This document shows positions 26,576 through 51,095 of a stretch of DNA of 64,000 bases, piece by piece. The stretch lies in the IMG/VR virus record IMGVR_UViG_3300032401_000004; one strand, given 5' to 3'. This DNA comes from an uncultured virus (IMG/VR IMGVR_UViG_3300032401_000004) (Duplodnaviria > Heunggongvirae > Uroviricota > Caudoviricetes). The notes under the pieces were generated by a model. The model was not told the DNA's origin. It saw only the letters and a program-made list of their open reading frames with translations, and ran no database searches. How positions within the stretch are numbered: the first letter of the stretch is position 1; each line of letters starts with the position of its first letter. Made by a program: the position numbers and the translations under genes.

Positions 26576-26956
26576 ATGATCATTCAGCGACGTAGCTTCT
26601 TTCAGCTCTTGGGCCTCGGTGCCGCTGTTGCGGCCGTCGAGCCGGTGCGGCGCATCTGGCAGGTAGGTGTGCAGCTGGAAACCTCTGCGTGCCCTCGCAA
26701 GTGGTGGCACGACATCAAGTACGACAGGGAAGCAGCACTCGCGGACCTGTACCTCCAAGACAAGTACGCGCACAGCGACGACCCCCACAGCACGCTCGCT
26801 GCAGACCTCATGCGCTTGCCTGTTGAGCAGGCCGTGTTGCGCCCTGAGTTTGCGCGTTACCGCAATGCGGCCAAGACTTGGAACTTCGGTCTGCACTACG
26901 GCGCGTCGGGTGTAGACTGGGCGAAGATGCTCCAGCAGGCGCGTCTGATTGGCTAG
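26576..26956 (+). CDS. Tat-like leader fused to a family-A DNA polymerase fingers fragment
   Basis: RRSFFQLLGLGAAVAA, then DPHSTLAA...RNAAKTWNFGLHYG (Pol A motif B). Confidence 0.6.
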   Translation: MIIQRRSFFQLLGLGAAVAAVEPVRRIWQVGVQLETSACPRKWWHDIKYDREAALADLYLQDKYAHSDDPHSTLAADLMRLPVEQAVLRPEFARYRNAAKTWNFGLHYGASGVDWAKMLQQARLIG

Positions 26957-27129
26957 CTCTTCGCGGGTGCGAGCTGCTGCACGAGCACCACGGCCAGGGC
27001 GAAGAAGAACGCGCCGACGACCACCTTGGCGTTGAAGGGGCTCTCGTCGTCGCTCGACGACGGCCCGTGCGCATACGGCGCACTGACGGGCTCTTCGTCG
27101 GGGATGAAGCCCAGGCGCGAGCGACGCAT
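26953..27129 (-). CDS. Small membrane protein
   Basis: C-terminal TM VVVGAFFFALAVVLV. Confidence 0.55.
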   Translation of the reverse strand: MRRSRLGFIPDEEPVSAPYAHGPSSSDDESPFNAKVVVGAFFFALAVVLVQQLAPAKS

Positions 27130-27253
27130 CACGCGCTCTTCTTGCGGTTGGGAACCTGCACCTGCGCCGCCAGTTCCTTCAACCACTGCTCGGTGGTCTT
27201 GTCAGCGGGCTTGCCGAGGGGTGCTGGCGTGTTGTCTTGGGCCATGGTGAACC

Positions 27254-27703
27254 TCAACGGAAGATGGAGTGCGTGATGGAGAAAGCAAATTGGTTGCTCC
27301 CCAACAAGTCGAAGTAGCGCGGCTTCAAACCTGGGGCCCGTGTCTCAAACACGACGGCGTTTGGGATTTGTATATTGTTTACGTTGGGAAGATCCCACAT
27401 GCAGAAAGGCGCAACGTGGTACGGGGCGATGAAGGGCTCGATGTCCTTCTCCGTGAATACGTAGAGCACTCCGGGTATGTTCGCGCCGTTCAGCTCTTCG
27501 TCGGTCTGTACGCCGAGGATGACCTTGCTCACGTCCTTGACGATGTCGAAAAACACCTTCTGCACCGCGCCGCTGCCGGTAGGGTCCACTGCAACGTCCC
27601 AGTCGGGGGCCAGCGGCGCATCAAGCGACTCGGCCACACGCACCGAACCTGTGTTCGCGCGTAGGAACCGCAACGTGCCTTTGGAGTATGCAAGCTGCGT
27701 CAT
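27254..27703 (-). CDS. Beta-rich putative virion protein
   Basis: Position in the late module and composition. Confidence 0.55.
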   Translation of the reverse strand: MTQLAYSKGTLRFLRANTGSVRVAESLDAPLAPDWDVAVDPTGSGAVQKVFFDIVKDVSKVILGVQTDEELNGANIPGVLYVFTEKDIEPFIAPYHVAPFCMWDLPNVNNIQIPNAVVFETRAPGLKPRYFDLLGSNQFAFSITHSIFR

Positions 27704-27827
27704 CGCTTCAAGTCCTTCTGCTCATCAAAACGTGGAACGTCCGGCCCAGGCTTCTTGCGCTTGACCTTGGTCAGCGCGGCCTGCGCGATCTTCTTACCCA
27801 ACTCGATGAGTAGGTCGAGGGCTTCAC

Positions 27828-28070
27828 TCACGGGATGCTCTTGTTGATCTTCGTGTAATAGCCTTGGATTGCGTCGAAGCGCCTCTTCAGCTCAGGGCAG
27901 AACGCAGGTGCGGGCGGCGGCTCTCGACAGCCGTCGTCGATCACTTGGTACATGCGCAAGAGTTCCTCGCCGCTCGACTTCACAGCCGAGCGAGCATCAT
28001 CAAGCGCTACTTGGGACTCTGCGCAGCCGCAGAGCCCAAGAGCGAGGAGACCGATGCCCAGCGTGCGCAT
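27828..28070 (-). CDS. Lipoprotein (spanin-like candidate)
   Basis: Signal peptide with lipobox LCGC. Confidence 0.55.
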   Translation of the reverse strand: MRTLGIGLLALGLCGCAESQVALDDARSAVKSSGEELLRMYQVIDDGCREPPPAPAFCPELKRRFDAIQGYYTKINKSIP

Positions 28071-28073
28071 CCA

Positions 28074-28271
28074 CTACCGGCGACCGCAGGTGGCCTTGAC
28101 GAACGGATGCGAGACGTACGTCAAGCCGTTCCTCTTGCTCGTCTTCTCTTGCTTGCTGATGCAGACGAACCCTCGGCCGTGGCCCTTGGTGCTCACCTTC
28201 ACCGCGCTGGCCGGGCATCCGCAGCCCTTCCAACTTCGCTTCGCACCGCTCTTCTTTCGCTTCTTTGCCAT
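28074..28271 (-). CDS. Small basic Cys-rich peptide, paralog A
   Basis: MAKKRKK...WKGCGCP...GRGFVC...PFVKATC. Confidence 0.65.
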   Translation of the reverse strand: MAKKRKKSGAKRSWKGCGCPASAVKVSTKGHGRGFVCISKQEKTSKRNGLTYVSHPFVKATCGRR

Positions 28272-28285
28272 GACTTTCTCCTCTA

Positions 28286-28447
28286 CTACCTGTTGCAGAT
28301 AGCTTTCACGAAGGGCTTGTACTTGCGGCCCTTCTTGTTGACTTTGAAACCCGACGCCTGGCAGGTCCAGCCGCGCCCTCGATTTTTGGTCGAGATCTTC
28401 TTCGTCCCAGTCGGACAACCACAACCTGACCAGTCCTTTTTGGGCAT
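28286..28447 (-). CDS. Small basic Cys-rich peptide, paralog B (not in the ORF track)
   Basis: MPKKDWSGCGCPTGTKKISTKNRGRGWTC...PFVKAICNR aligns with paralog A. Confidence 0.7.
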   Translation of the reverse strand: MPKKDWSGCGCPTGTKKISTKNRGRGWTCQASGFKVNKKGRKYKPFVKAICNR

Positions 28448-28485
28448 TGCTTTGTAGACCTTGACGGCTAGCTTACCAGCGTGAG

Positions 28486-32046: not shown

Positions 32047-32838
32047 TTACGCAACGCGGGTGATCGACATCGACGTGGGCATGCCGAACTTCGGAGTCTT
32101 GTTGGGGAACAGGATGTTGCGTCGCAAACCACGCAGCGAGCGGATCGTGCGGCCGATGGCGTTGGCCCGGCCGATGTCTCCCGACCTGCGAGCCTGCAGC
32201 GCGATGCGCTTGAGGTTCTTGAGCTTGGACTGAGAAGCCAAGCGATCGAACACCGCACATTGGTTGGCGAACAGCCGCGTCTTGAACGCAGCGTCGGACA
32301 CGCCGTCGAGCGGCTCGGAGAGTGCAAGCTCAGCCAAACCAGCGTTGCTGGGGGTCAGCGGCAGGTCTCCGGGCCAGCTGGAGCCGCCCGAGTAGTTCGC
32401 GCCTGCGCTCGCGTCAATGACGGGACCACGGTTGTAGTAGCCGGGGATGTTGCGGCTGTTCTCGCCTTCCAGAGAACCGATGGAACTGCCGTAGTGCTTG
32501 TCGATGTCCTCGACGCGATGCCCGTCGTACATGCCGTCGCGGCCTGCTAGGCCAGAGCTGCTCGGAGTCAGCGGCAGGTCACCCGGCCAGCTCGAACCCC
32601 CGGAGTAGTTCGCGCCCGCCGATGCGTCGATGACGTTCATCTTCTCGTAGTACGTGAGCAGATCTTCATCCGCATCCGCGAGACCCGAGTTGCTCGGCGT
32701 GAGCGGCAGGTCGCCCGGCCAGCTCGAACCTCCCGAGTAGTTGGCTCCCGCCGAAGCGTCGATCACATTCCTACGTTGGTAGTACGTCGGAATGTCTCCG
32801 AGGCCATCCAAAACCGCAATCTCTTCACCGAATCGCAT
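32047..32838 (-). CDS. Polyprotein-like protein with three near-identical ~30-aa repeats
   Basis: VIDASAGANYSGGSSWPGDLPLTPS(N/S)(S/A)GLA three times. Confidence 0.85.
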   Translation of the reverse strand: MRFGEEIAVLDGLGDIPTYYQRRNVIDASAGANYSGGSSWPGDLPLTPSNSGLADADEDLLTYYEKMNVIDASAGANYSGGSSWPGDLPLTPSSSGLAGRDGMYDGHRVEDIDKHYGSSIGSLEGENSRNIPGYYNRGPVIDASAGANYSGGSSWPGDLPLTPSNAGLAELALSEPLDGVSDAAFKTRLFANQCAVFDRLASQSKLKNLKRIALQARRSGDIGRANAIGRTIRSLRGLRRNILFPNKTPKFGMPTSMSITRVA

Positions 32839-35800
32839 GCTGACCTCCAGAGTTTCTGTTTCTCAAATATAAAGCCAGACCGCCCAGGCCCACAACCCCC
32901 AGGATGGTCATTGTTTTCCAGTCGGTTCCGGTGGGTTTGTCCAGCTGCTTGCGCTGTTCCACCGTGAGCTTGCCCTCAGTCACGTACTTGTCCAGTTGAG
33001 CGTCTCGGTCAGCGAGCGTCTGAGTCTCGCTGGTGAGCGCATCCCCGACACCCTTGACGACAATGCCTGTTGTGGCTGCCGTCCGCACCACAGGCAATCG
33101 AAGCAGTGTGAGCAGCCCCGTCCACGTTGCGCCTGCAAACCTGGCGATCCATGGAGCCGCCACCTCGACTGCTTGCACCGCCTGTCCGAGGCCTTGGAGC
33201 GCCGCAGCGGGCGACGTCGAGAGCGGTGCCTTCAAAAAGTCCACCATCTCGGTAGAGGTAGACGCCAGTTCCCCCAAGTAGGCTTCCAGACTGGACACCC
33301 CTGCTGCCGGGGAGGCTCCTGCACCTGCCGCGTCCACCGCTTGAGCCACCGAAGGCAACGCGATGATCTGCGCGGTGCGCAGCTTCACGCGCTCGGCGGC
33401 CGTGAGCCAGGCCTCAAAGGCTTGCTCTACCTCCGGGGCGATTGTGCCCCCGGTAGCGACGGCTGCCTGCATGGTCTGGATGTACCGGGGACCTTTAGAA
33501 CCCAGCGACTGTAGAGCCGCCACCAGACCATCCCAGACCGCGCCAGGATCGGTCGGTGCGCCCGGTGAAGGCTCTGGAGTCGTACCGCCACCGCCAGGGG
33601 TTTCCCCTCCAGCCCCGCCACCACCGGACGCACCGCCGCCACTGCCACCACCGCCGCCACTGTCAGGAGCACCGCCGCCACTGCCACCACCACCACCACC
33701 ACCGCTGGGCGTGGAGGAGCCATCCCCGCCTCCGGGGATGCGCTGATCTGAAGTACCGCCGCCGGTTGTACCGCCGCCAGTTGTACCGCCACCCTCTGTG
33801 GGCCGTTCCAACCAGAGCTTCTGCCCGGTGACGATGGTCGCCTCATCCCCTGGCATCACGCGCACCGTGGTGTTGTCAGGGCTGACGAGCTTAGGGAACG
33901 CCATGGTCCAGATGGGCGCGAGCGTCGCGGAAGGCACGAAGACCTTCAAGAAGGCCTCCTGTGTCGTGGGGTCCCACGTTCCGCTCAAGCTAACCTGTGG
34001 GATCTCCGGGCGCTTCCTGCGCACAATGTCCAAGGTGCGCTGTACCGCGAGCACAGGCACGACCACGGTGGCCACCTTGAGCAGCGCTGTCACGTCCGCT
34101 TGATCTTTTGGAGTCTCAGGCTTCGGAGCGGGCGCGCTCTTCGCCGCTTCACGCAGCATTGCGACGAACGCCTTCGGCAGCTTCACGGAGCTGGCCGACT
34201 TTTTCGCGGACACCACGATGATCTTCACCGTGCTGCCACCGGGCTGCTTGTTGAGCCACGTGCGCAGCGCTTGCTCTGTGTTGCGCCCCCAAGTGCTGTC
34301 CACCTTGAGCTTGCTCTTGGTCAGCGTGTTGAGGCCCTGCTGCACCGTGTTCGCGGCGATCTCTTCGACGTCGAGCACCGACGGCTTGTCTGGCTGCTTC
34401 ACAGCCTCGTTCTTGAGGGCGTTGTAGGTGTCAGAAACGACCGATGCCTTGAGCGCGTTCAACGTCCCTGTCACGCCTGCATTGAGTTTGCGCGCTGTGG
34501 CGACGGTTTCCCACGCCTTCTGCGTCGAGGGCCCAAACTTTTTATCCAGTGTGCCTTTGGTCTTCGGCACGCCCAGGCGATGCACGATGTCCTGCATCTC
34601 GGCGACGAGAATCTCAACAGATCCCGAAGGCACATCCTTCTTCTTCTCGGGCTCTGGCTTGCCGCCAGCTGCGGCGTCCGCTGCGGCACTGAGCGCTGCA
34701 ACGGTCGCAGGATCTACTGCAGCCGTGCCTGTCTGATATGCGACGAACTTGGGGTTGAGCTTGCGAGAGCGCGATGAGACCCCCCAAGCGTGCGCGAGCG
34801 TAGGCGTGAACGTACCGCTCTTGGGTAGTTTCTTTGTGGTCCAGCCAAGCTTGTAGAGGATGTCGAACGCCAGAACGATCGGGATGATCGGCGTATCTGT
34901 GTTTTTGCTTGGCTTGGCAGGAGTCTCAGGGGTCTCAGGCGTCTTCTTCTGCTCTGGGGTCTTCGGCTGCTTGGCCTTCATCGCCTCTTCGAGCATCGTG
35001 ACGTAGGCGCTCGCATTCAAGCGCGCCGTCTTGCCGTCCACACGCACGAACGTCGAGTCAAGCTTGCGGCCCTTCGTCGAAGTTTCCCACGCCCCTTGCG
35101 TCTTGGGGCCGAAGAGTCCGAAGTCACGCGAGCCAGGACGCGGGATAGTCGAGGACTTCCAGCCGAGCTTAATGAGGAGGTTCTGGACATCGGCCACCGA
35201 CTTATCTACGAGGTCCGCACTGGGCGCGGGCTTCTTGTCATCCTTCACCTTTTTGTCGGTGATGGTGTTGTCCTTCACCGGCTGCACGCCGCTCTTGGCG
35301 GCATCGGCGGCGATCTGATCGTACGTGGCCTGCGAGACGCGGGCCGTCTTGCCGTCCACGCGATCAAAGGCTACGGGCAAGTGACGGTTGGCCGCAGACA
35401 CGGCCCAGGCGTGAGAGGTCTGCTTGCCGTACGCGCCGTCGCGCGTGAGCTTCTTCGTCGTCCAGCCGACGCCGTAGAGCAGATCCTGCAACTCCAGCAC
35501 GGTCTTGACGACCGAGCCCGGCACGATCACGTCCTTGGCAGGAGCGCCCACCGACACGACGTTGCCGCGTGCTGCAGCTTGCATCGCGTCGAACGTCGCG
35601 TGGTCCACGTACACAGAATCGGAGTACTCGGCGGCCTTCAGCACCGGGTTGAGCTTGCGCGTGGTGGCCGAGATGCCCCAGGCCTTGGCGAGCATGGGCG
35701 TGTACACACCGGAACGCGGCAGCTTCTTGGTCGTCCAGCCCAGGCCGTACAGGATGTCAAAAGCATCTTTCACGGCGTGCGTGGCGAGCATGCCTGTGGG

Positions 35801-36187
35801 CGTGGTGGCAGGTGCGGCCGTCTGCGCAGGACGCACGACGGCCGCAGGTTGCGCAGCTTGAGGCTGCGCACCGCCAGAAAGAGCAGCGAGCGTAGCCGGG
35901 TCCACGAACGCCTCGGTGGCGCTCGCACGGTTGAACGTAGGGTTCAACTTGCGGCTCTGCGATGATGTGCCCCATGCGCCTGCGGTCTTCGGGCCGAAGA
36001 GCCCAAAGTCCTTGCTGCCTGGACGCGGGATGGTCGTGGCCTTCCAGCCGAGACCGATCAGGATGTTCTGGAGATCCGCGACAGTGCGGCGCACAAGGCC
36101 GCTCTGCACCGGAGAGTTTGATGTGGCAGCGAAGTCGCCGAGCGCGAACTCTTCCAGGTACTCATGGATGTTGTTGCCAAAGGACAT
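32825..36187 (-). CDS. Large membrane-anchored protein with about 8 peptidoglycan-binding-like repeats
   Basis: Repeats V..(L/V)Q..L..LG.....G.FG..T..AW, a Gly linker and a C-terminal TM. Confidence 0.75.
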   Translation of the reverse strand: MSFGNNIHEYLEEFALGDFAATSNSPVQSGLVRRTVADLQNILIGLGWKATTIPRPGSKDFGLFGPKTAGAWGTSSQSRKLNPTFNRASATEAFVDPATLAALSGGAQPQAAQPAAVVRPAQTAAPATTPTGMLATHAVKDAFDILYGLGWTTKKLPRSGVYTPMLAKAWGISATTRKLNPVLKAAEYSDSVYVDHATFDAMQAAARGNVVSVGAPAKDVIVPGSVVKTVLELQDLLYGVGWTTKKLTRDGAYGKQTSHAWAVSAANRHLPVAFDRVDGKTARVSQATYDQIAADAAKSGVQPVKDNTITDKKVKDDKKPAPSADLVDKSVADVQNLLIKLGWKSSTIPRPGSRDFGLFGPKTQGAWETSTKGRKLDSTFVRVDGKTARLNASAYVTMLEEAMKAKQPKTPEQKKTPETPETPAKPSKNTDTPIIPIVLAFDILYKLGWTTKKLPKSGTFTPTLAHAWGVSSRSRKLNPKFVAYQTGTAAVDPATVAALSAAADAAAGGKPEPEKKKDVPSGSVEILVAEMQDIVHRLGVPKTKGTLDKKFGPSTQKAWETVATARKLNAGVTGTLNALKASVVSDTYNALKNEAVKQPDKPSVLDVEEIAANTVQQGLNTLTKSKLKVDSTWGRNTEQALRTWLNKQPGGSTVKIIVVSAKKSASSVKLPKAFVAMLREAAKSAPAPKPETPKDQADVTALLKVATVVVPVLAVQRTLDIVRRKRPEIPQVSLSGTWDPTTQEAFLKVFVPSATLAPIWTMAFPKLVSPDNTTVRVMPGDEATIVTGQKLWLERPTEGGGTTGGGTTGGGTSDQRIPGGGDGSSTPSGGGGGGGSGGGAPDSGGGGGSGGGASGGGGAGGETPGGGGTTPEPSPGAPTDPGAVWDGLVAALQSLGSKGPRYIQTMQAAVATGGTIAPEVEQAFEAWLTAAERVKLRTAQIIALPSVAQAVDAAGAGASPAAGVSSLEAYLGELASTSTEMVDFLKAPLSTSPAAALQGLGQAVQAVEVAAPWIARFAGATWTGLLTLLRLPVVRTAATTGIVVKGVGDALTSETQTLADRDAQLDKYVTEGKLTVEQRKQLDKPTGTDWKTMTILGVVGLGGLALYLRNRNSGGQHAIR

Positions 36188-37244: not shown

Positions 37245-37301
37245 GGAATCTCCGTCAAGCGGTGAGAAGGTGACGTAGCAGAGAAGCTGAAAGGCGCGGA
37301 C

Positions 37302-38703: not shown

Positions 38704-38820
38704 CGTGATGTTGCCTCCAGTTAGGGGTCCACGTTTCATACGGGACCGAGCGTTCGCAGCGACGATGAACTGTCGCTACGACGCAAACCTAACGCCGGAA
38801 GATTTCACGAGTCAATAGAA

Positions 38821-41057: not shown

Positions 41058-41177
41058 GTGCCCCGCTTTCTGGGAGTCTAGGGTAGAATCTCGTAGGAGA
41101 ATGAAAACTGTAGGTATTGCAGAGCCACGGTGGTTGCGCTCCAAAGCACCTGTGCGAGATCGGTCACGTTGCGTGAC

Positions 41178-42752
41178 TTACGGGATGGGTCCACCCAGCA
41201 AACCAGCGACGGCTGCTGCAAGGCGGTCCAGTGCCGTCCATACGTCGGTCGGGCTGCCCGCCCAGTTGGCGGGTGCTGCGGGCGTGTAGGGGATCAGGTT
41301 TTTGTTTGTTGGCTCGCGCGAAAGCATGAACCACTGGGCACCTGCGCTCGTATATTGCCATGTGCGGACGTCGCCACTGCCTGGCAATGGGGCGCTGGCT
41401 CCTAGCAACCCGGTGTCATCGACTATCATGTCCGCGCCGAAAGCGACCACGGTGCCGGGGCCGAAACCGACTGGATCATAGACAGCGAAGCGGGCACCAT
41501 CTACTCCAGCGGGCAGCGTGAGCACGTAGGCGGGAGGGGCAACAGCGGCATACGTGAAGCCCGGCGTTATAGCCTGCGACGCCGCCACCTGCAGGGCCCG
41601 CAAACCCGGCTCTAGCTTCAGTGCGTCAATCGCTCCCTGCACGTTACTTGAACCAAGCAGCGGGAGCACAAGCGTGTCGTCGTAGGACGTGCCTCGTGCG
41701 GTGGACATTGGCACTGCGTTTACGGTGCCGAGGAAAAGTGTCTGTGTGACTTGGGGTGCGCTTGAATCGAGAATTTCAAGCAGCGTGGTCGTGGCGTCGC
41801 CAGAGAAAAGCTGTGGTGAGTAAGCGTCCGCGCCCGAAAACGCTTGAGAGCCCGCCTGCGAAATGATCGCGTGGATGATCACCTTTCCCGGCTCGACAGC
41901 AATCATGGCCAGCGATGGGTCGGCCGCGTTGTTGTTGAACGTCGCCCCCTCAAAAGCCGCGATCTCTGAAAATGTTCCTGCCATGCGGATGGCCGACTTG
42001 GTGGACCCAAGCTCCAGGTTGACTTGCCCGCCCTCGCGACAGATCAAGACCCCTCCGTCGACGTTTTGCAACAACATGTCGTGCTGCGTACACACACCAT
42101 TCACCGCCACCGACTTGACGGTGAAGAGGTTGCGCAGTCTCCCCCCGTCGGTGATTGTCGCCGTCATTATCGCGCCCAGGAGCAGTGTGTACCCCACGAG
42201 CTGCACCCGGCCAAAACACTCAGTGTCCGTTTCCTCAGGGATGATTGCTGGCGCGATGCTGCTGTCCACCTGCACGATGATGTTGCCCGACGTGGCTGCA
42301 ATGCGTGCTTCGACTTCCGCCCACGTCTCAACCACCGCACCGTTCGACGGCACGCCGGGTCGCCAGATGATGTTCTCTTGTGCCCCGCTGCCCGCGCCGG
42401 GCTTCGCCACGAAGTACGCCTGGCTGCCCGCCGCCAGACCCTCGATGGAGTGTAGGTACCAGACGTCGAGAGCCAGTACATCTGTAGTGGCCGCCGCCGT
42501 CAGCGTCAACACCAGTGTCGTGGGGGTGCCTGTAACGGGCAGAAACGAAACTGCTGACGCAACAGAAGACACGCCAGAGTCAATCTGCTGCACGAACACC
42601 AGGATGCTCTGCTTGAAGTCACGGGTAGCCCGCACGGCTTCGGGTAGAGCCGTGAGATCCCAGGTCTGTTGTACGCCGACACCGGCCACGCCCACTGGGC
42701 CGGTGTACCGGAGACGGAAGGCCGAGTGGGGGGGTTTGATGAGAGGAAGCAT
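41178..42752 (-). CDS. Putative receptor-binding spike or fibre, paralog 2
   Basis: Shared N-terminal domain, different body, with NVQGAIDAL and DVWTALDRL fibre-type motifs. Confidence 0.7.
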   Translation of the reverse strand: MLPLIKPPHSAFRLRYTGPVGVAGVGVQQTWDLTALPEAVRATRDFKQSILVFVQQIDSGVSSVASAVSFLPVTGTPTTLVLTLTAAATTDVLALDVWYLHSIEGLAAGSQAYFVAKPGAGSGAQENIIWRPGVPSNGAVVETWAEVEARIAATSGNIIVQVDSSIAPAIIPEETDTECFGRVQLVGYTLLLGAIMTATITDGGRLRNLFTVKSVAVNGVCTQHDMLLQNVDGGVLICREGGQVNLELGSTKSAIRMAGTFSEIAAFEGATFNNNAADPSLAMIAVEPGKVIIHAIISQAGSQAFSGADAYSPQLFSGDATTTLLEILDSSAPQVTQTLFLGTVNAVPMSTARGTSYDDTLVLPLLGSSNVQGAIDALKLEPGLRALQVAASQAITPGFTYAAVAPPAYVLTLPAGVDGARFAVYDPVGFGPGTVVAFGADMIVDDTGLLGASAPLPGSGDVRTWQYTSAGAQWFMLSREPTNKNLIPYTPAAPANWAGSPTDVWTALDRLAAAVAGLLGGPIP

Positions 42753-42755: not shown

Positions 42756-43355
42756 TTACGCTTTCTGAGAGAGATAATACGTGATTCCGAGCGCGCCTAA
42801 CAACGCGGCCACAACGGGCACAGAAGCTCGTCGCCCTAGACACTCCCACGACGGGCCCTCTACCACGCGGTACCGTCCCGGCGGGTTACCCACTTCGACA
42901 GCGTGGGCTTTTGACTCTCGGGCCCACTGCTTGGCGTCGCGCTTGTCCGCGTAGGTCTCGCACATGGAGTGCCAGCGGTCTGTGCGGCTGGATCTGAACT
43001 CGACGTGAAACTTCGGATCCCCCAGAGGAAAACCATCGAGGTGAAACCTTTTGAGCTTCACGTAGTACTTCGGATCTTCCGCGAGGTGATCCATCGCGAT
43101 CTGTTTGGCGATGGCGCGCTTGTTCGTGTGCTCCATCTCAACGTCGGTGCCGCGTTTGAGCTGCTTGGCATTGAACGCGCTCGGGCGCATGCCGTGTGCT
43201 TTGCCGCCGACCATACCAAGACCTCGGTGCTTGTTGACCGTGGCCGCAGCGATGCGCTTGCACGTCGAGACCGAGCGCCGCTTGTCGCGCGCATGGCAGC
43301 TCTTCACGATGTGCTTGTACTGTCGCTCGTCCTTAGGGGACCAGTAACTGGGCAT
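42756..43355 (-). CDS. Multi-module protein with a DUF5661-like domain and C-terminal TM
   Basis: QLKRGTDVEMEHT...IAMDHLAEDPKYY. Modules are separated by RGLGM, PLGD and CLGR. Confidence 0.7.
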   Translation of the reverse strand: MPSYWSPKDERQYKHIVKSCHARDKRRSVSTCKRIAAATVNKHRGLGMVGGKAHGMRPSAFNAKQLKRGTDVEMEHTNKRAIAKQIAMDHLAEDPKYYVKLKRFHLDGFPLGDPKFHVEFRSSRTDRWHSMCETYADKRDAKQWARESKAHAVEVGNPPGRYRVVEGPSWECLGRRASVPVVAALLGALGITYYLSQKA

Positions 43356-43366: not shown

Positions 43367-44014
43367 TCAGAGGCTGGTGTACAGCCCCGTCTTCTCGGTG
43401 ATGATACTCCGAAGCTGGTCCACGTAGATACCACTTGCCTCAGAAAGCACTTTTCGCTCGTAGTATGGTGGCTTTTTGGAGTTTCGAACCTTCAAGAACT
43501 GCATCGTGTAGGTGTCGTCGGGGTCGAGCTGCACGCGGACGTGGGTCACGCCCTGGGCGTTGCGCCCGATCTTGAAGGTGAGCGAGTTCGCGTCGCCCAT
43601 CAGGTCTTTGGCCCCGAGCATCAAGAATGCCTTGCGGCCGATCTGGTCGGAGATGGTCTGCGCGACGATCATGTCGGTGGCTCCTAGTCCTGCGCTCTTG
43701 AGCTTCGCATAGAGTGAGCTTGCGGTCTTGTGCAGGCCGCGAGCTGCGCGAGCGTCTCCGTAGCCTTCCGACTCCGAGCGCCCTTTGTCAATGGCATCGT
43801 CGATGCCGTTCATCTCTTCCAGGATGAGACGACGCAGCAGCTCAGCATCGGGTACAGCCAGACCCGGTGTGCCGGTCGCTGCAGTACGTCCGAAGTGCTC
43901 GGCCACGGTCTCGATCACGGACGCGATGCTCTCGTCTTCGTCTTCGACGTAGCGGCCGATCAGCTCGACCTCGACGAACGATGCTTGGGCGGGCGTCAAC
44001 GGTAGTATCTTCAT
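43367..44014 (-). CDS. Two-domain protein joined at AGLGATD
   Basis: Acidic helical N-domain; the C-domain begins MIVAQTI..QIG. Confidence 0.7.
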   Translation of the reverse strand: MKILPLTPAQASFVEVELIGRYVEDEDESIASVIETVAEHFGRTAATGTPGLAVPDAELLRRLILEEMNGIDDAIDKGRSESEGYGDARAARGLHKTASSLYAKLKSAGLGATDMIVAQTISDQIGRKAFLMLGAKDLMGDANSLTFKIGRNAQGVTHVRVQLDPDDTYTMQFLKVRNSKKPPYYERKVLSEASGIYVDQLRSIITEKTGLYTSL

Positions 44015-44022: not shown

Positions 44023-44505
44023 TCACTCAGCGTAAAAAACGCTGCCCTTCAAAAGCTTCTTTTCTAGAGCTTCTTTTCTAGGCACCAAAGCTTCTTCCAT
44101 GCGCTTGAGTGCGCGCACGAAGTAGTCATTGCTCAACGGCCGAAAGCCGCTCGGCGGCTTGCGTGCTGTACGGACGCGACCGATGGCCGACTGCGCTGTG
44201 CTGCCGTTGAGCATCATGGCCAAGGCCACGACGATGCCAGAGCGGTTGCGGCCTTCGTAGCAAGTCACCAAGACGCGCTTGCCTTCAGCGCGGAGCTTGT
44301 TCACTTGCTTTGCCGTCTTGATCACAAGCGCCATCTCATCATTGGTGGGTTTGGAGTCGTCGATGGGTGCGTTGATGGTGCGGCACGGCAGCTCGGGCTG
44401 GTGCTCCGCTGCACAAAGAACGATGACGTCGAACGCAGCACAAGCCTCGGGCGACGGTCGGCCGCCCATCCAGAGCTTCGGTGCGATGCGGTGCGCGTCG
44501 ATCAC
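44023..44505 (-). CDS. Dual-specificity (CX5R) protein phosphatase
   Basis: LWMG, PIDD and VLVTCYEGRNRS. Confidence 0.85.
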   Translation of the reverse strand: MIDAHRIAPKLWMGGRPSPEACAAFDVIVLCAAEHQPELPCRTINAPIDDSKPTNDEMALVIKTAKQVNKLRAEGKRVLVTCYEGRNRSGIVVALAMMLNGSTAQSAIGRVRTARKPPSGFRPLSNDYFVRALKRMEEALVPRKEALEKKLLKGSVFYAE

Positions 44506-45035
44506 GGCAGCGGTCCTGTCGCCACGGGCCCTTGGATTACTTCACCCATGCCGTTGACCAGGCACACGTCCACGACGCACTGCTCCAGCCCCTTGACGAC
44601 GAGCTTGTAGAGCTTGGTGCCTTTGGATCCGGCGCGGATGACGAAGACCGTGATGCTGCGGTTACTGCCGCGATCAGAAGCCTGTCGCCAGACCTCGAAG
44701 TTCTTACCGCCGATGCGCACGGGGTCTCCGTGTTTGAGGGCGGTGAGCTTCTGCAAGCAGTCGTCTCTAGAATCCCCGAGGCCTGAACGCCGAGCATCGC
44801 GATCCTGCGCAATCTCACGCTTGAAGCGTCGGGTGTACTCCTCGTTGAAAGCTCGCAGTGCGGCAAAGGCGGCATCGGCTGCATGCTTGGCGTTTTGCCA
44901 CTTGGGTGTGGCTCGCACGCTATCCGGCGTAACGCCCATCGGCCCGCCGCCAGACAAGGCCTTCAGAGCGCGCCCGGTACGTTCGTACTCGGCGTGCAGC
45001 TGATCGTGGCGCTCTTTGGCTTGGGCGTACCCCAT
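44502..45035 (-). CDS. Two-domain protein joined at SGLGDS
   Basis: Helical N-domain (GPMGVTPDSVR) and beta C-domain. Confidence 0.7.
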   Translation of the reverse strand: MGYAQAKERHDQLHAEYERTGRALKALSGGGPMGVTPDSVRATPKWQNAKHAADAAFAALRAFNEEYTRRFKREIAQDRDARRSGLGDSRDDCLQKLTALKHGDPVRIGGKNFEVWRQASDRGSNRSITVFVIRAGSKGTKLYKLVVKGLEQCVVDVCLVNGMGEVIQGPVATGPLP

Positions 45036-45371: not shown

Positions 45372-45941
45372 TCACGCTCGCGGCATGATCCCTTTGTCGA
45401 GGAAGCTGTAGTACGTGGTCGGATCATCGGTAACGATGACGTGGTCAAGCAACGTCATGCCGACCAAGTCCGCGCCTTTGACCAGGCGCTTGGTTAGCTC
45501 AACGTCAGCCTCGCTCGGCGTGGCCACACCCGAAGGGTGGTTGTGCGCGACGATGAAGGACACGCCGCCCGAGAGCACGGCGGCTTGAAAGATGATGCTG
45601 GCGTCCACGTTGGCGAAGATGCGTCCGCCGATGTGCGGCACCGCGATTGCGACGGGCACGTTCTTGGAGTCCACGCACACGATCATCAAGAACTCTCGAC
45701 CTCGACCCACGTACGGGATGGTTTCGTGGAGTAGGCGCGCGATGTCGCGCGAGCTAGCGATGGCCGGGTGGTCTTTGTCAGACTTCTTCTTCTTGCGCGG
45801 CACCTCCACGCAAGTGTCGAACTTCATCCAGCCGTAGCGCGTCTTGGTGGACGCGCAGAGCTTACGACGTGTCTGCTGCACCTCGGGGTCAGACTCGATG
45901 TCGCCGAGCGTGATGTGCTCTTGGGGGATGGGGTACTTCAT
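45372..45941 (-). CDS. JAB/RadC-like metalloprotein
   Basis: RE.L, VAHNHPSG..PSEAD and LLDHVIV. Confidence 0.9.
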   Translation of the reverse strand: MKYPIPQEHITLGDIESDPEVQQTRRKLCASTKTRYGWMKFDTCVEVPRKKKKSDKDHPAIASSRDIARLLHETIPYVGRGREFLMIVCVDSKNVPVAIAVPHIGGRIFANVDASIIFQAAVLSGGVSFIVAHNHPSGVATPSEADVELTKRLVKGADLVGMTLLDHVIVTDDPTTYYSFLDKGIMPRA

Positions 45942-45943
45942 GG

Positions 45944-47476
45944 CTACACCCACTCGTAGCCGAGCGTGTACAGGATGGAGCTGGCGAGGTTTCCGGCTTC
46001 GTCTTCCTCCTCGCCCTCCCCGCTATCGTGCTTATCCTTGAGCTTGGTGAGAAAACGGTACATTGCCTCGGCGTTGAGAACACGGATGCCGAGCTTGTCC
46101 GAATACTTTGATTCAAACTCTTCAATACCCCCCTTGTTGAGGTTGATCCCAAGATCAAGCACCGCGTTTTTCCCCTCGCCGACCAGCTCCATCGGGTAAG
46201 GGTAGTGGCCTTCGGTGCGCTCCACGAACTCTTCTTCTGTGGGCATGTCCCCGTAGGGCAAGCGCTTGAACTCGCCCTCCCACTCGCCGAAGCCTTTGAT
46301 GGACTTGCTGCCGCTGACCTTGTCCACGTCCTTCGGCGACACGCCGATGGTGCCCGCCTGGTCCCACTTCACGTAGAGCAGACCACCGCCGGGGCCTGGC
46401 AGGTACGTGCGCTTGCCGAAGCCTGGCATCGTGGTGACGCTGCCCTCCTCGCCGGGCTCTGGGTGGTGCGTGTAAAGCACGAGGCTGCCTGGCGACGGGT
46501 TGAAGCGCACGCGGGTGCCTTGACGTGAGCGGGCCGAGACTTCACCGAGGCCACGAGGTAGCGTTCCGTCCGGCATGGGCAGTCCGAAGCGATGCGCGGT
46601 TTCGTCGTAGCGGTGCCGAAGCTCCCTCAAACGGGCACCTGATAGGTGGTGTTCGATCTCAACCGTGCGCATTGAGGTGGAGAACTTTTCACCTTTTGAA
46701 ACGAGAGCTATGAGATCCGACATGGCTGCCTGCATCGCCGGATCTGGAGCATGCTCGCTGAGGCCGTCCGAGCGCGAGCGCGAGCGAGGACGGATGGTGC
46801 GCTTGCCCATGACCTCGATCATCTCGCTGGATCCTCCCGGCCCCACGTCCACGATGCGCATGCCGTTCTGGAACATGGAGTCGGGTGTGCCTCCGCGCTT
46901 GATCATCGCCTTCTGGGCGGCCTCTTTGGTGTTGTGAGTGGACAACACGCGGTCGTCCATGATGCCCTCGGCTTTGACGAGCGCCCAGTTCAGCCCTTCT
47001 AGATCTCTCGCAGTGCCCGTGCCCCAGTTTGCATCGTCGTCGGGGTTCAACCCCTCGCGCTTCGCCCCCGTCCTGGTGAGCACACGCGCCGTTGCCTGCA
47101 AAGCTGGCGGGAGATTCTCAACAGCTTCCTTAGCGTCACTGGCGTAGCTGTTGCCCGCCATGATTTTCTTGCCGCGCGGTGTAGTCACGACCACAAAGTG
47201 TGTGTAACCCTCGGGGGTGTGCTCTGGACGGTTCATACCTTCGAACTGCTCCGTGACTCCTTCTCCTTTTGCGCCGTTGAGCGGCTCGCCGCCGTCCACC
47301 GCTGTCACGAAGCCTTTACCGTCCACCACCAGCCCCGCCTTGAGCGCGGCGCGCACAGCGTCGGCCTTGTTGCGGTAAAACATCTGGTTGTCCCCGATGC
47401 GCAAGAGCTGGTCGCCGAAGACGAAGACGAACGCCTGGTTGGCTTTCGAGTACATGAGACGCTGGGCGTTCGACAT
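45944..47476 (-). CDS. Polyprotein of 5-6 small domains separated by LxG/GLG-type linkers
   Basis: PLNGA, DLEGL, DGLSE, RGLGE and KGFGE at 70-90 aa intervals. Confidence 0.75.
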   Translation of the reverse strand: MSNAQRLMYSKANQAFVFVFGDQLLRIGDNQMFYRNKADAVRAALKAGLVVDGKGFVTAVDGGEPLNGAKGEGVTEQFEGMNRPEHTPEGYTHFVVVTTPRGKKIMAGNSYASDAKEAVENLPPALQATARVLTRTGAKREGLNPDDDANWGTGTARDLEGLNWALVKAEGIMDDRVLSTHNTKEAAQKAMIKRGGTPDSMFQNGMRIVDVGPGGSSEMIEVMGKRTIRPRSRSRSDGLSEHAPDPAMQAAMSDLIALVSKGEKFSTSMRTVEIEHHLSGARLRELRHRYDETAHRFGLPMPDGTLPRGLGEVSARSRQGTRVRFNPSPGSLVLYTHHPEPGEEGSVTTMPGFGKRTYLPGPGGGLLYVKWDQAGTIGVSPKDVDKVSGSKSIKGFGEWEGEFKRLPYGDMPTEEEFVERTEGHYPYPMELVGEGKNAVLDLGINLNKGGIEEFESKYSDKLGIRVLNAEAMYRFLTKLKDKHDSGEGEEEDEAGNLASSILYTLGYEWV

Positions 47477-48411: not shown

Positions 48412-48837
48412 TTACGCTATCATCCAGGTGAGATCCACGATTTCGCTAGTGCCCCCGTCCCGCACGGTCACGATGCCGTCGTACCCGTCCACCACGATTG
48501 CTCTTGACAATGCTCGGCCGCGCTTTTTGTAGTGCAACTCCAACTGCCGTTTCCAGCTGCTGTCGTCGTAGAGGTTGCCGGGCACGAGGTTGAACGGGAT
48601 GACGAGCGGGCGCTTGAAGCGGATGTTGCCGTGTTCCCACTCTCGGGGTATGTGGCGCGTGTTCTTGACGTGGATGAGGTAACGCCCGGCGGGCTCGATG
48701 CGCTGCTGGTAGCGGTCCCCGAGCGCGGCGGGCGGGGACTTATCGGTGTTGCGGGCGAAGATGAACTTGACCGGCACGCCGGTCTCAAAGTGCACGCCGT
48801 ACTCGGTTGCAGTTGCTACTTGCATTCGAAGTTGCAA
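48412..48837 (-). CDS. Possible ADP-ribosyltransferase-like protein
   Basis: G.Y, KRPLVI and DGYDGIV...EIV resemble ART-PolyVal-type motifs. Confidence 0.4.
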   Translation of the reverse strand: MQLRMQVATATEYGVHFETGVPVKFIFARNTDKSPPAALGDRYQQRIEPAGRYLIHVKNTRHIPREWEHGNIRFKRPLVIPFNLVPGNLYDDSSWKRQLELHYKKRGRALSRAIVVDGYDGIVTVRDGGTSEIVDLTWMIA

Positions 48838-48840
48838 CCT

Positions 48841-49341
48841 TCACGCTCTGGCGAACATACCCTGGCCTATCACCGTTCCGCCCACGGCCCAGGTCGGAAT
48901 GCAACGCGTGCCTGCGATGGTGGACGCGGGGACAAGGTCCGAGCGCACGCAGGGCGTCTGCGTCGGCATGCCGCTCGGGTGGATGAAGGCGGTGTAACCG
49001 AGGTTCTTGTACTGGCCGTCCATCACTTGCTTCACGAAGGCCCGAGCCTGTTCCCACCGAGGATGTGACGGGCCCATGGAGTTAAAGCGTGCTCGGCACT
49101 TGCTCGTGTAGCACCACGTAGAGCTGGTGACGACGTCAATGGCGCTGCTCTTGTGCGTGCGCATGCGGTTTAGCGCTACGAAAACGATCTGCGCCATCTC
49201 ATCTCGGGGGTGGGCGAGATCCGTCTCGGTCAAGAGGATGCGAGCGATCACGTCCTGGTCAGACTCACGACGGCTCATGAGCAACAGCAACGCGAGCAGC
49301 GCGCCGCCGCCGAGAGCCCAGCGCTTAGCCTCGGGGGTCAT
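48841..49341 (-). CDS. Membrane-anchored SleB/Hydrolase_2-like cell-wall hydrolase
   Basis: N-terminal TM, then IARILLTE...IVFVALNR...DVV. Confidence 0.6.
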   Translation of the reverse strand: MTPEAKRWALGGGALLALLLLMSRRESDQDVIARILLTETDLAHPRDEMAQIVFVALNRMRTHKSSAIDVVTSSTWCYTSKCRARFNSMGPSHPRWEQARAFVKQVMDGQYKNLGYTAFIHPSGMPTQTPCVRSDLVPASTIAGTRCIPTWAVGGTVIGQGMFARA

Positions 49342-49607
49342 GCGATAGTTCCTCGGTCTTTGGCTCGAATCTCCAGCCGCTGGAATACCGAGGCTTCAGG
49401 GTCTTGACGGTACTGTTCAACACCGTCGGCCCCTAGCCAAGCGCGGGCTCCCGCTTCGCTGTAGACGAGCACGTCGATCACTGCCAGCTCGCCGCCCCGG
49501 CTTGCGGACATGGCGACAGCAAGCTCCGTGGCCTCGCTCCATTTCTTGACGTGCTGCGTCTTTTCGCCCGCGCTGACGGCGAACTCGACGTCCTTGTGTG
49601 TTTTCAC
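49338..49607 (-). CDS. Hypothetical protein
   Basis: GTGA overlap. Confidence 0.55.
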   Translation of the reverse strand: MKTHKDVEFAVSAGEKTQHVKKWSEATELAVAMSASRGGELAVIDVLVYSEAGARAWLGADGVEQYRQDPEASVFQRLEIRAKDRGTIA

Positions 49608-49963
49608 AGCAGCACCATGCGCCGACGGTTGCGCCGGTACAGCCACCATCCGCCGACAGCGGCAGCCGCAGCGACCCACGGCCACAGGTTTTTCTTCTGT
49701 GGGTGTTGCGCTTCGAGCGCCGTGAGCTGGGAGTTGTAGGTGCCCCACTCCCACTTGTTCATGATGTCGCTGAGCGCTTGGTTGGACGAGAGCGCCACGG
49801 CCACGTTGGCGTACGCAGAGTAGAGAGGCTGCAAAGCTTCTTTCGGGGCGTCGAGTTTCCCTGCGCGGGTCTTCAAGTCCTCCCAGGCCTGCTCGACGAA
49901 AGCGGCTGTGACGCCGGGGCCGAGAGAACGGGGATCTGCGCCAATGCGTGGTCCTTGAGCCAT
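49604..49963 (-). CDS. C-terminally membrane-anchored protein
   Basis: LWPWVAAAAAVGGWWLYRR. Confidence 0.65.
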   Translation of the reverse strand: MAQGPRIGADPRSLGPGVTAAFVEQAWEDLKTRAGKLDAPKEALQPLYSAYANVAVALSSNQALSDIMNKWEWGTYNSQLTALEAQHPQKKNLWPWVAAAAAVGGWWLYRRNRRRMVLL

Positions 49964-49965
49964 GA

Positions 49966-50310
49966 TCAGTCCTTCTTTCGACGCTGTTGCCAGCGACGGT
50001 AGCTCTCGGGAATCTTCACGTAGCCCCCTCGGGCTTGATCCTCTGCGTAGGCGGATTCAATGCGCTCGCCTGCATGATCGTCCATCAGCTCGGGATCTTC
50101 CCAGTTGACGTCCACGCCGATCACGCGCCATCCACCGTGTGTGTCGTTGTTCAGGATCGCCTGAGCGATGTTCGCTCGCTCCTCCCAGGCGGTGCCGAAC
50201 GCAAGCGCGCCCCCGTCCGAGGTGACGAAGAAGAGAGGGTAGCCTCCGGGCCAGGCGTAAGGGCCTTGCTTGAGCGCGTTGCCGAAGTCTTTGACGGTCT
50301 CGATTTTCAT
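49966..50310 (-). CDS. Hypothetical phage protein
   Basis: YAWPGGYP...NWED. Confidence 0.65.
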   Translation of the reverse strand: MKIETVKDFGNALKQGPYAWPGGYPLFFVTSDGGALAFGTAWEERANIAQAILNNDTHGGWRVIGVDVNWEDPELMDDHAGERIESAYAEDQARGGYVKIPESYRRWQQRRKKD

Positions 50311-51095
50311 CACGCACCTTGCCCTAGGTAACTACGACCTCTGCTCTCGGCCACCAGCTCCTGGAAGTACTCGGGGCTGACCGGGCGCACGACGACCGCG
50401 CCGCCGAGGCCGCCCAGGCCCGTCAGGCCGTACTGCGGGTCCACGACGGCCACAGGCGTGCCGACCTGGCCTGGCACCGCTGCGACGACGAACAGGCGCT
50501 TGCCGGTGTTGGAGGTGAGCACCTGCGCGGCGCGCACGGCCTCCAGGTACTGCTGCGGGTAGATCTCGCGCTTGTACGTGCGCGGGAACGGATTGTGGCT
50601 CACCACGTAGTTCGGCCTTCCCACAAGTCTGGGCACGCCCTGACTGTTGAACACCAGGCGCTGACCCTTGCGGAACTCGGCGACGGGATGCGCGTTGGGG
50701 AAGTCGCGCATGTAGCCTGAGCCCATCTTCTTTTCACAGCTCGCGCAACCTTCCAGGCCCGAGAGCCCTCGGGGCCGGTTTCGGGGGAAGCGCGAAGCCG
50801 TGTTTGGTGTGGTTCGGGCGCACGCTCGGCATGGGATGCCGCCTCGTGCTCCTGAGCCTTCTCGGCCCCAGCGCACGACACGGAAAGGTTTGCCCTTGAG
50901 CGCGCACAGCGTGCTGCACTCGCGCAGCGCCGGGCCGAGAGCTGCGAAGCGTCGCAGCCAGACCGGAGCCGGGTACGTGGGCATCACGATCTGGTAAGGG
51001 CCTTCGTCGGCCTTACCATAGTCATCAATCGAAAAACCTGCTTGCGCTGCGATGGCCTTCTCGCTGAAGGGATCGAGCGGCGTTGCTGCGAACAT
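50310..51095 (-). CDS. Hypothetical protein with GLSGLEG and GLTGLGGLGG motifs
   Basis: AAGGAGG RBS and CxxC pairs. Confidence 0.7.
   Translation of the reverse strand: MFAATPLDPFSEKAIAAQAGFSIDDYGKADEGPYQIVMPTYPAPVWLRRFAALGPALRECSTLCALKGKPFRVVRWGREGSGARGGIPCRACARTTPNTASRFPRNRPRGLSGLEGCASCEKKMGSGYMRDFPNAHPVAEFRKGQRLVFNSQGVPRLVGRPNYVVSHNPFPRTYKREIYPQQYLEAVRAAQVLTSNTGKRLFVVAAVPGQVGTPVAVVDPQYGLTGLGGLGGAVVVRPVSPEYFQELVAESRGRSYLGQGA

Follow-up and report, generated by a model that had tools for sequence, protein, structure and literature searches.

The stretch of DNA considered here, 64,000 nucleotides of an uncultured virus (IMG/VR record IMGVR_UViG_3300032401_000004) and referred to below as the window, has densely packed open reading frames (ORFs) and a GC content of 61%. 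Our subject is a short peptide motif of the Gly-Leu-Gly type that recurs in proteins of this virus in N-terminal leaders, at seams between protein modules and just ahead of C-terminal membrane anchors, together with a transglutaminase-like enzyme, encoded close to the capsid candidate, that may cut at it. Instances of the motif lie in a minus-strand block (~27-51.7 kb) that is nearly without Pfam or PHROG matches, and in a plus-strand cluster at 42-4200 (Table 1). The minus-strand block includes a conserved core, syntenic among relatives, that is made up of the transglutaminase-like gene, 38089-38739, the capsid candidate, 36639-37247, 36187-36597, the gene of a 1120-aa protein and 32047-32838. 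A preliminary description of this DNA, which had singled out the motif, placed a Cys-His-Asp transglutaminase-like gene two genes upstream of the capsid candidate, and the placement is confirmed by the coordinates of the two genes and by a match of the former to Pfam PF01841. Comparisons were made with a set of related DNA consisting of 3 viral contigs, 68 metagenome loci and 6 contigs of metagenome-assembled genomes (MAGs), in which the long contigs are 64-102 kb.

Table 1. Genes and features of the window discussed in the text, in map order (motif coordinates are window positions; domain and membrane segments are residue numbers).
Feature	Position	Strand	Details
GP88-family protein	42..1229	+	Pfam GP88 E 2.5e-20, domain 118-383
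Cys-rich domain protein	1239..2000	+	PGLGD 1875-1886, variable tail, C-terminal anchor (hydrophobic segment 227-243)
Small protein	2158..2457	+	GSLGD 2341-2352, nine residues before C-terminal membrane segment (71-87)
Tail-anchored protein	4305..4883	-	N-terminal AGLGD 4836-4847
Repeat protein	32047..32838	-	N-terminal IAVLDGLGD (32794-32805)
1120-aa protein	32825..36187	-	ALGD 36134-36145, PG_binding_1 (E 5.3e-10), Gly-rich tract, membrane segment 1092-1108
Possible second capsid protein, likewise conserved in the capsid block	36639..37247	-	homologues in 61 of 77 loci
Capsid candidate, single jelly-roll-like	37352..37999	-	215 aa; most conserved gene of the family
Conserved membrane protein	38089..38739	-	three hydrophobic segments; acidic N-terminal peptide DDLMGLDMYD..GMGG
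Transglutaminase-like Cys-His-Asp enzyme, candidate protease	38821..39540	-	N-terminal helix, basic linker, catalytic domain
Two spike-like paralogues	39762..42752	-	39762-41144 and 41178-42752; homologues in 5 loci
Three-module protein	42756..43355	-	N-module, RGLGM 43212-43223, DUF5661, PLGD 43017-43028, C-module, anchor
Two-module protein	43367..44014	-	AGLGA 43679-43690
Two-module protein	44502..45035	-	SGLGD 44772-44783
RadC-like JAB protein	45372..45953	-	Pfam RadC E 1.6e-27; N-terminal TLGD 45900-45911
Multi-module protein, 510 aa	45944..47476	-	GLSE 46754-46765, GLGE 46541-46552, GFGE 46283-46294
Protein with ALGD at residue 38	48412..48837	-	ALGD 48715-48726

For counting, the proteins of the window were divided, by a heuristic based on GC content at third codon positions (GC3) and by strand block, into 40 'late' (8,945 aa) and 51 'early' proteins (9,837 aa); the two terms denote strand blocks, not expression classes. 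The wide form of the motif, [GAS][LMF][GAS][DEG], occurs 40 times in the late proteins, where shuffling within each protein leads one to expect 18.0 +/- 4.1 (none of 2000 shuffles reaches 40), and 13 times in the early proteins, where 12.6 are expected. Stricter forms behave in the same way: [GAS]LG[DE] is found 11 times in late proteins (1.9 expected) and once in early ones (1.7), GLG[DE] 6 times (0.7) and once (0.5), and GLG 19 times (6.6) and 6 times (4.4). The late excess over shuffles is about twofold for the wide form and about sixfold for the strict forms. The instances listed in the preliminary description are all present in the genes to which it assigned them, as judged by translation and codon position; it had remarked, by eye, that the motif is rare in early genes, where the counts stand at expectation.

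Shuffling the late proteins only locally, within windows of 10, 20 or 40 residues, leaves the expectation for the wide form at 18.2-18.8, with none of 500 shuffles reaching 40; local composition is therefore ruled out as the source of the excess. The order of residues matters: the other 11 orders of the wide-motif residue classes yield 9-28 matches in the late proteins, and the other 11 orders of G, L, G and [DE] yield 0-2, as against 6. Bacterial proteins with genes called alike (350 proteins, 114,352 aa, from contigs of two MAGs of 62% and 67% GC) have no such excess, with GLG[DE] at 4 against 9.4 expected, the wide motif at 235 against 214 and GLG at 75 against 79. Some cautions attach to these numbers. 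The motif was picked by eye after the sequence had been viewed; exact GLGD is present in 5 late proteins, a number that AAAG, LTAL, GSGA and AVRA reach as well, and in 98 of 300 shuffles some 4-mer occurs in at least 5 proteins; several wide-motif matches with G in fourth place sit in hydrophobic helices, and a repeat protein supplies several more. A bias of LG[DE] towards the first 40 residues (5 of 40 late and 1 of 51 early proteins, 18 of 431 proteins of relatives, in which gene starts are heuristic, and 6 of 350 bacterial proteins) is suggestive. By such counts the motif is real and not random, a short linear signal of the virus family.

The signal extends to relatives, in which the counts are weaker than in the window. 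Four whole related contigs have 3, 5, 2 and 4 GLG[DE] sequences where 1.1-1.4 are expected in each, or 14 in sum against 4.9. Over the other loci with a capsid gene (leaving out loci shorter than 5 kb, L054 and L074-L077), a tally that in part counts the same conserved families in many loci finds 83 G[LF][GSA][DE] sequences against 33.4 expected and 149 GLG against 92.5, the controls GGL, LGG, GIG, GVG and GAG being near 1. Alignments of single families (made without L004, which is identical to the window, and without L026 and L032, which duplicate L003 and L002) place the conserved core of the motif at G-[LFM]-[GSA], that is, of Gly-Leu-Gly type with an optional trailing D or E. An extended motif, L-[DE]-G-L, was dropped, its z scores in relatives being -1.2 to 1.8.

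The instances are encoded by differing codons. A DNA word that would specify part of the motif, CTCGGNGAY, occurs 23 times in place of the 6.5 expected from shuffles that ignore codon bias, and its matches are distributed as 12 sense and in frame, 2 in another frame, 7 antisense and 2 intergenic. Because the instances differ in their codons, and because codon bias is not preserved in the shuffles, a DNA-level signal was dropped as the main explanation; the varied codons and the share of matches in frame imply that selection acts on the peptide.

The clearest single case of conservation is the Cys-rich protein 1239-2000. In its family G213, L214 and G215 never change: all 21 homologues, which share 41-78% identity with the window protein, have them. 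The tail between the motif and the anchor varies from ~5 to 40 residues and the sequence of the anchor itself differs among homologues. The fourth residue is G in 8, E in 4, R in 3, Q in 2, N in 2, D in 1 and A in 1, so that the stress laid on an acidic fourth residue in the preliminary description has to be given up: D or E is found there in 5 of the 21. That Gly-Leu-Gly persists while tail and anchor change around it counts in favour of a processing code.

The accessory proteins of the minus-strand block show the motif at seams, and modules of three of them (three in 42756-43355, two in 44502-45035 and at least three in 45944-47476) recur in other contexts. In 42756-43355 the DUF5661 domain (Pfam) covers residues 58-103 and the motifs at residues 45 and 110 flank it, with CLGR present in addition; each module is found alone or in other fusions in relatives (L074, L010, L024, L003 and G003), among which the C-module of L003 is preceded by CLGDCLGD and the N-module of L074 is followed by TGLGE. 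In 43367-44014 the motif, at residue 109, stands six residues ahead of a phrog_9437 domain (115-215). In 44502-45035 a phrog_7560 domain occupies residues 3-84 and the motif follows directly, at 85. Since Pfam and PHROG domain edges thus flank the motif in these three proteins, the seam position is defined independently of the motif. The N-module of 44502-45035 also exists as stand-alone proteins of ~100 aa that stop right before the motif. Its C-module has one stand-alone form that consists of a five-residue leader followed by ALGD, and another copy of it is joined to a different N-module through DLGD; one homologue of the C-module is without the motif, which is accordingly not needed for the fold.

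In 45944-47476 all three motifs fall at module seams, as segmented by homology with L010 and with L074/G001. Its middle module, a 69-aa domain (GTRVRF...; residues 320-388, window 46313-46519) that is covered by no Pfam or PHROG family, was used, with the motif excluded, as a query against 1.84 billion representative proteins, and was found in 173 of them at E <= 0.001. Among the 150 matches listed, the proteins range from 63 to 1858 aa, with the domain N-terminal, internal or C-terminal. It often stands right behind a basic leader of 3-14 residues and is a highly promiscuous module. A close subfamily consists of 22 proteins at 80 bits or more, 19 of them with upstream sequence; in these 19, position -11 is G in 12, position -10 is L, F, M or I in 15 and position -9 is G, D, A or S in 16. 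G[LFMI][GDSA] stands exactly at -11 to -9 in 12 of 19, V-S-x-R-T-R is conserved after it, and sequences upstream of -12 are unrelated. Stand-alone forms of the domain begin with Met and one further residue before V-S, and so start 1-2 residues past the position of the motif. Distant fused homologues have the motif at that place in 10 of 81 cases; those that do without it indicate that here, too, the motif is not part of the fold. The preliminary description had located the motif at module seams, near N-termini and before C-terminal membrane anchors, and in position it is borne out. Even if nothing is cut there, the motif has a practical use in these genomes, as a marker of module seams.

The motif is conserved among relatives in several unrelated families, some of which have it near the N-terminus. 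The GP88-family protein has RGLGD (135-146) in a leader ahead of its domain, and its G001 homologue keeps AGLG-AD. The L074 homologue of the RadC-like JAB protein has MLG..E at the equivalent place, and the L007 homologue of 48412-48837 retains QLGD. In the family of the conserved membrane protein 38089-38739 the N-terminal peptide conforms to D[LM]MGL[DE] in 25 of 46 members and to G[LM][GSDE] in 45 of 46. In the 32047-32838 family IAVLDG[LFI] is kept in 23 of 30, and S-x-x-G-L-A-x (S..GLA.) at repeat ends in 27 of 30; the N-terminal ALGD of the 1120-aa protein survives as xGD in close relatives only. GLSG and GLGG of 50310-51095 are not conserved, and neither is ALGD in the capsid candidate (37724-37735), which is probably a chance occurrence (the family consensus is RLAxGN).

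The protein 32047-32838 has three to four internal repeats of ~45 aa (NVIDASAGANYSGGSSWPGDLPLTPS..GLA.), which 27 of 30 homologues keep. In the 1120-aa protein a long Gly-rich tract accompanies some six PG_binding_1-like repeats; Pfam recognises no catalytic domain in it, and it may have a wall-binding or length-determining role in the virion. These two proteins, the transglutaminase-like enzyme and their homologues begin with similar N-terminal peptides (M-S/R-F/L-G-x-x-I/V-...). No shared DNA sequence was found at the starts of late genes that might explain these MSFG-type N-termini, and the likeness is therefore in the protein; it may reflect a shared N-terminal signal.

The enzyme encoded at 38821-39540 matches PF01841 at E 3.8e-13 (50.1 bits, the cut-off being 23), as do 28 of 28 members of its family in their turn, and the triad C163, H196 and D215 is invariant in all 28. 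The AlphaFold2 model (pLDDT 84.7, pTM 0.75) consists of a helix at residues 4-28, a basic linker of low confidence and a confident catalytic domain. A profile of the family set against sequences of the Protein Data Bank (PDB) finds LapG best (4u65_E, weakly, at E 0.0024), followed by the putative cysteine protease 3isr (E 0.039); the closest solved sequence relative is thus a true protease, and the preliminary description's candidate is a core gene of the family with its triad intact. In structural comparison (VIA) the putative protease 3kd4 leads at Z 14.7 (root-mean-square deviation 3.0 over 139 aligned residues), followed by 3isr and transglutaminase 3 (10.8 each), TglA (10.6), PNGase (10.4), the phage wall isopeptidases PeiP (10.3) and PeiW (10.1), and LapG (9.6); Foldseek agrees (3isr, E 1.2e-5). 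With proteases, isopeptidases and transglutaminases all among the neighbours, the fold does not decide between a protease, a wall isopeptidase and a cross-linker. The Pfam model of the C93 (LapG/BTLCP) family matches 1 of the 28 family members only, at E 0.0096, well below significance.

All 4 related genomes that were searched carry the enzyme gene, as do 38 of the 77 loci, many of which are short, and it adjoins either the capsid block or a recombinase gene and the gene of a 600-750-aa protein. In the latter arrangement (L001 5380-9311 and contigs G002-G004; compare window 52685-55704) a tyrosine recombinase, a 600-750-aa protein without a family and the transglutaminase-like gene form a co-oriented string that runs into the capsid block. 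The tether of the enzyme, that is, the linker between helix and catalytic domain, contains G[LFM][GSA] or [LF][GSA][DE] in 20 of the 28 family members, which are related to each other, where shuffles give 6.2 (none of 1000 reaches 20). Co-folding of the enzyme domain (A2, 50-239) with the soluble part of a 1239-2000-family protein (A3, 60-228) gave a score of 0.00 in two runs, made without controls, and weighs neither way.

The reading that we favour, tentatively, is that the motif is a processing code and that the transglutaminase-like enzyme reads it. As a cysteine protease of the transglutaminase fold, 38821-39540 would cut at the motif, trimming N-terminal leaders, separating fused modules and freeing domains from their membrane anchors, and it may also release itself from its own N-terminal tether. 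The cleavage itself, the pairing of this enzyme with these substrates, the timing (during or after assembly) and the loading of the products into particles are steps that we infer. What recommends proteolytic processing as the simplest explanation is the conjunction of the seam position, the starts of stand-alone modules, the survival of the motif through swaps of tail and anchor, and its presence in the tether of the one peptidase-like enzyme that the family conserves; an enrichment that is specific to late-strand genes and survives every control counts on the same side.

Several observations pull the other way. The wide motif is scarcely enriched in the four whole related contigs (z 0.6-1.2), the homologues behind the conservation counts are related and not independent events, gene starts in relatives are heuristic, and the acid in fourth place that first drew attention is not conserved. 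Some of the N-terminal instances that the preliminary description had listed are lost in relatives: AGLGD of 4305-4883 is absent from both of two G001 paralogues, and full GLG[DE] at the N-terminus of the 32047-32838 family is kept in 2 of 30. The stand-alone C-module of the 44502-45035 type keeps ALGD after its five-residue leader, which a docking tag would explain equally well. As for the enzyme, its fold is common to PeiP and PeiW, true transglutaminases and PNGase, and a cell-wall or other role is equally compatible with it; the tether of the window's own enzyme has SLDD only, which lies outside the strict patterns; and the N-terminal helix is weakly hydrophobic, no 17-residue stretch reaching a Kyte-Doolittle value of 1.6. 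Exported, membrane-tethered endolysins have such a weakly hydrophobic N-terminal helix.

Among the alternatives, the one that survives best is that the motif is never cut and serves as a docking or assembly tag, a peptide that binds a capsid, membrane or scaffold partner and recruits proteins to the particle, much as encapsulin cargo peptides do. The enzyme would then be a cell-wall endopeptidase or endoisopeptidase of the virion or of lysis, a partner of the 1120-aa peptidoglycan-binding protein; PeiP and PeiW among its fold neighbours, its weakly hydrophobic helix and the adjoining protein's repeats without a recognised catalytic domain fit such a role. A tag would also account for a motif kept at the start of a stand-alone module and for the conserved acidic-hydrophobic N-terminal peptides of three core proteins. 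It needs neither an exact position at seams nor a match with the starts of stand-alone forms, however, and both are found; the window already has an M15 peptidase (3691-4200), with an N-terminal membrane segment, in a lysis-like cluster; and within the family the motif is also present in the enzyme's own tether. We regard a docking tag as unlikely.

We consider it a little less likely still that the motif is passive, a hinge or a scar left by module shuffling, in which case a favoured flexible linker, or a short microhomology used in recombining modules, would be inherited with the modules and read by nothing. The modules on either side of it are demonstrably shuffled among relatives, the 69-aa domain alone occurring in many architectures, and the excess of CTCGGNGAY, with 7 antisense matches among it, speaks for it. 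The codons of the instances vary, however, and about half of the DNA-word matches are sense and in frame, though codon bias alone could yield that. The invariance of Gly-Leu-Gly over 21 homologues in varying surroundings implies selection on the peptide; besides, a Leu flanked by Gly is atypical of linkers, and bacterial proteins have no excess of it.

It is improbable that the motif is the cleavage site of some other protease, whether a host enzyme, an HExxH protein or the RadC-like JAB protein. HExxH motifs occur in three early-strand proteins (17470-18198, 21016-21762 and 23285-24658), two of them with weak WLM/SprT-like matches, and it is possible that these are zincin-like peptidases, of a kind that has been proposed, in the available text of PMC5512222, to process polyvalent proteins. 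Those Pfam matches fall below the cut-offs, however, and 17470-18198 and 21016-21762 have no homologue in the closest complete relative, although the motif and the transglutaminase-like gene are conserved. The window's HExxH proteins are without a homologue in G001, and no other recognisable peptidase was found to be conserved in the family. As for the JAB protein, RadC is argued in the same available text to act on nucleic acids and not on proteins (PMC5512222).

Quite improbable, in our estimate, is a variant in which the enzyme is a sortase-like transpeptidase that cuts at G-L-G and joins the domain covalently to an amine acceptor. The reaction would pass through a thioester intermediate, and the acceptor would lie on the capsid, on a viral membrane lipid or on the host wall; several of the proteins have G-L-G before a membrane anchor and basic tail, as in sortase and exosortase substrates. 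A G-L-G code would then direct the covalent building of a particle, which to our knowledge is known in no virus.

Chance or composition would make the motif an artefact, selected by eye from proteins rich in Gly, Leu and Ala, with repeats and paralogues swelling the counts. Such a view draws on the cautions already given (the choice of the motif after the fact, a GLGD no commoner than four other 4-mers, matches in hydrophobic helices and in one repeat protein) and is disfavoured, indeed very improbable, in the face of the local-shuffle and permuted-order controls, the lack of excess in early genes and bacterial contigs, and conservation in families that were not used for defining the motif.

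The setting in which a processing code would operate is that of a virus family of its own. Of 424 candidate homologues of the capsid candidate, 264 pass at E <= 0.001; these lie on contigs of up to 102 kb, and none is informatively named, nearly all being 'hypothetical protein' or unnamed. The AlphaFold2 model of the capsid candidate is of modest quality (pLDDT 63.6). Foldseek returns mostly jelly-roll capsid proteins, weakly, with one match at E <= 0.001 (CCMV, best E 1e-3), and VIA likewise gives weak scores, to SPV1 (Z 7.1), P23-77 VP17 (Z 5.3) and HHIV-2/HCIV-1 (Z 5.0); a profile of the capsid family against PDB sequences finds nothing useful (one match at E 0.75). Homologues of the possible second capsid protein adjoin the capsid candidate in every case. 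The family to which the window belongs is undescribed and consists of virus-like contigs of ~65-100 kb that carry a jelly-roll-like capsid candidate, and the context, to go by these matches, is probably that of a membrane-containing tailless virus with a jelly-roll capsid. Pfam and PHROG scans match no terminase, portal or HK97-type capsid family among the window ORFs; a terminase or packaging ATPase is also unrecognised among 10 large proteins scanned from a 73.8-kb relative. In the window, which is part of a genome, a Walker A motif is in no ORF of the late block, scans of that block find no ATPase family, and an FtsK/HerA-type packaging ATPase beside the capsid genes was not found. Family contigs L072-L077 are binned in MAGs of five groups (Gemmatimonadota, Acidimicrobiia, Anaerolineae, Fimbriimonadaceae and Actinomycetota), which suggests either that free virus contigs were mis-binned or that the host range is very broad.

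Other genes of the window may be noted briefly. The same scans identify four genes of replication type, for a RecD-like helicase (6469-8811), a tyrosine recombinase (52685-53608), a D5-type primase (60423-62888) and a PD-(D/E)XK nuclease (63125-end). The plus-strand cluster 42-4200, which comprises the GP88-family Cys-rich protein, two tail-anchored proteins, small membrane proteins and the M15 peptidase, looks like a lysis or envelope cassette; relative G001 carries an amidase_2 gene. The two spike-like paralogues between the enzyme gene and the accessory genes share a near-identical N-terminal domain of ~120 aa that ends shortly past IEGLAAG, after which they diverge completely. Theirs is the pattern of putative exchangeable receptor-binding proteins on a common adaptor, and tblastn finds no relative of them in phage and plasmid collections. 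An 81-aa ORF at 9779-10024 (minus strand) has an above-cut-off match to the Pfam family of ribosome modulation factor (RMF, E 1.4e-7), which is unusual for a virus; its GC3 is low (0.57) and its coding status uncertain.

Maturation of virions by a virus protease that acts at a short code is textbook knowledge for tailed phages, adenoviruses and the giant-virus lineage. The consensus of the T4 prohead protease is L/I-x-E. In T4-type phages, head proteins and ejected proteins have a minimal site of hydrophobic-x-acid type at their seams and in short N-terminal leaders (in T4, capsid targeting sequences), and a virus protease within the prohead trims them, itself included, according to the available part of PMC9958956. 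The proposed system resembles that of T4 gp21 and its SPN3US/phiKZ-type equivalents in having short sites at leaders and seams, although cutting at the sites of the window is so far a proposal. It differs in that gp21 is a serine protease of another fold in a tailed phage with an HK97-fold capsid, whereas the core of the window's motif is G-L-G and not an acid, and its capsid candidate is jelly-roll-like; no prohead serine protease of the gp21 family is among the Pfam and PHROG hits of the 96 window ORFs.

Adenain, ASFV (African swine fever virus) pS273R and poxvirus I7 are clan CE cysteine proteases that mature many virion proteins in eukaryotic viruses of the jelly-roll lineage. Adenain cuts at (M/I/L)XGG-X and (M/I/L)XGX-G, and pS273R and I7 likewise cut at Gly-containing sites. 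VLDGL-G and MPGL-G of the window fit (M/I/L)XGX-G. Unlike adenain, the window enzyme has the transglutaminase fold, and P4 is not hydrophobic in most members of the 1239-2000 family; no clan CE family turned up in Pfam scans of the window ORFs.

LapG cuts its adhesin once, between Ala108 and Ala109 of a conserved short site of small residues, and so releases the adhesin from its retention module, as described in the available text of PMC3032545. It is, like the window enzyme, a Cys-His-Asp enzyme, and the best of its solved sequence relatives. It differs in being periplasmic and cellular and in cutting at A-A, not G-L-G, and the window is without a LapD-type partner. PeiP and PeiW are phage-encoded cell-wall isopeptidases that cut an isopeptide bond for lysis, in the accounts available from PMC4592898 and PMC2989375. 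They are virus-encoded and of transglutaminase fold, as is the enzyme considered here; unlike it, they have wall-binding repeats and no N-terminal helix, and have no link to a motif of virion proteins.

Polyvalent proteins of phages and conjugative elements are multi-module proteins that are rapidly shuffled; the proposal is that they travel with DNA and that built-in peptidases process them (Iyer et al. 2017, PMC5512222, available text). The accessory genes at 42.7-51.1 kb are like them in carrying several independently mobile domains per polypeptide and unlike them in that their modules are mostly small separate genes or parts of two- to four-module proteins. The available text of that paper (PMC5512222) reports RadC domains, has 0 occurrences of 'phosphatase' and of 'transglutaminase', and describes no shared junction motif. 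With the tailless, membrane-containing viruses that have two single-jelly-roll capsid proteins (Helvetiavirae-like: Sphaerolipoviridae, Simuloviridae and Thermus phage P23-77) the window shares two adjacent small genes in the capsid block and many small membrane proteins, together with the weak fold likeness of its capsid candidate to P23-77 VP17 and HHIV-2/HCIV-1; their known members, so far as the available sources go, have genomes of 16-31 kb, unlike the contigs considered here.

Maturation by a code and a protease has not been described for bacterial viruses with jelly-roll capsids, nor with an enzyme of the transglutaminase fold, and our literature search found no paper that links a transglutaminase-like enzyme to jelly-roll or two-capsid-protein viruses or to a maturation protease. 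If the processing code proposed here is real, it would provide a protease-plus-code pair for a large environmental virus family (at least 264 capsid homologues) and, by a simple rule, would let the unannotated multi-module proteins of that family be divided into functional units. It would also mean that the proteolysis of virion maturation has had an independent evolutionary origin.

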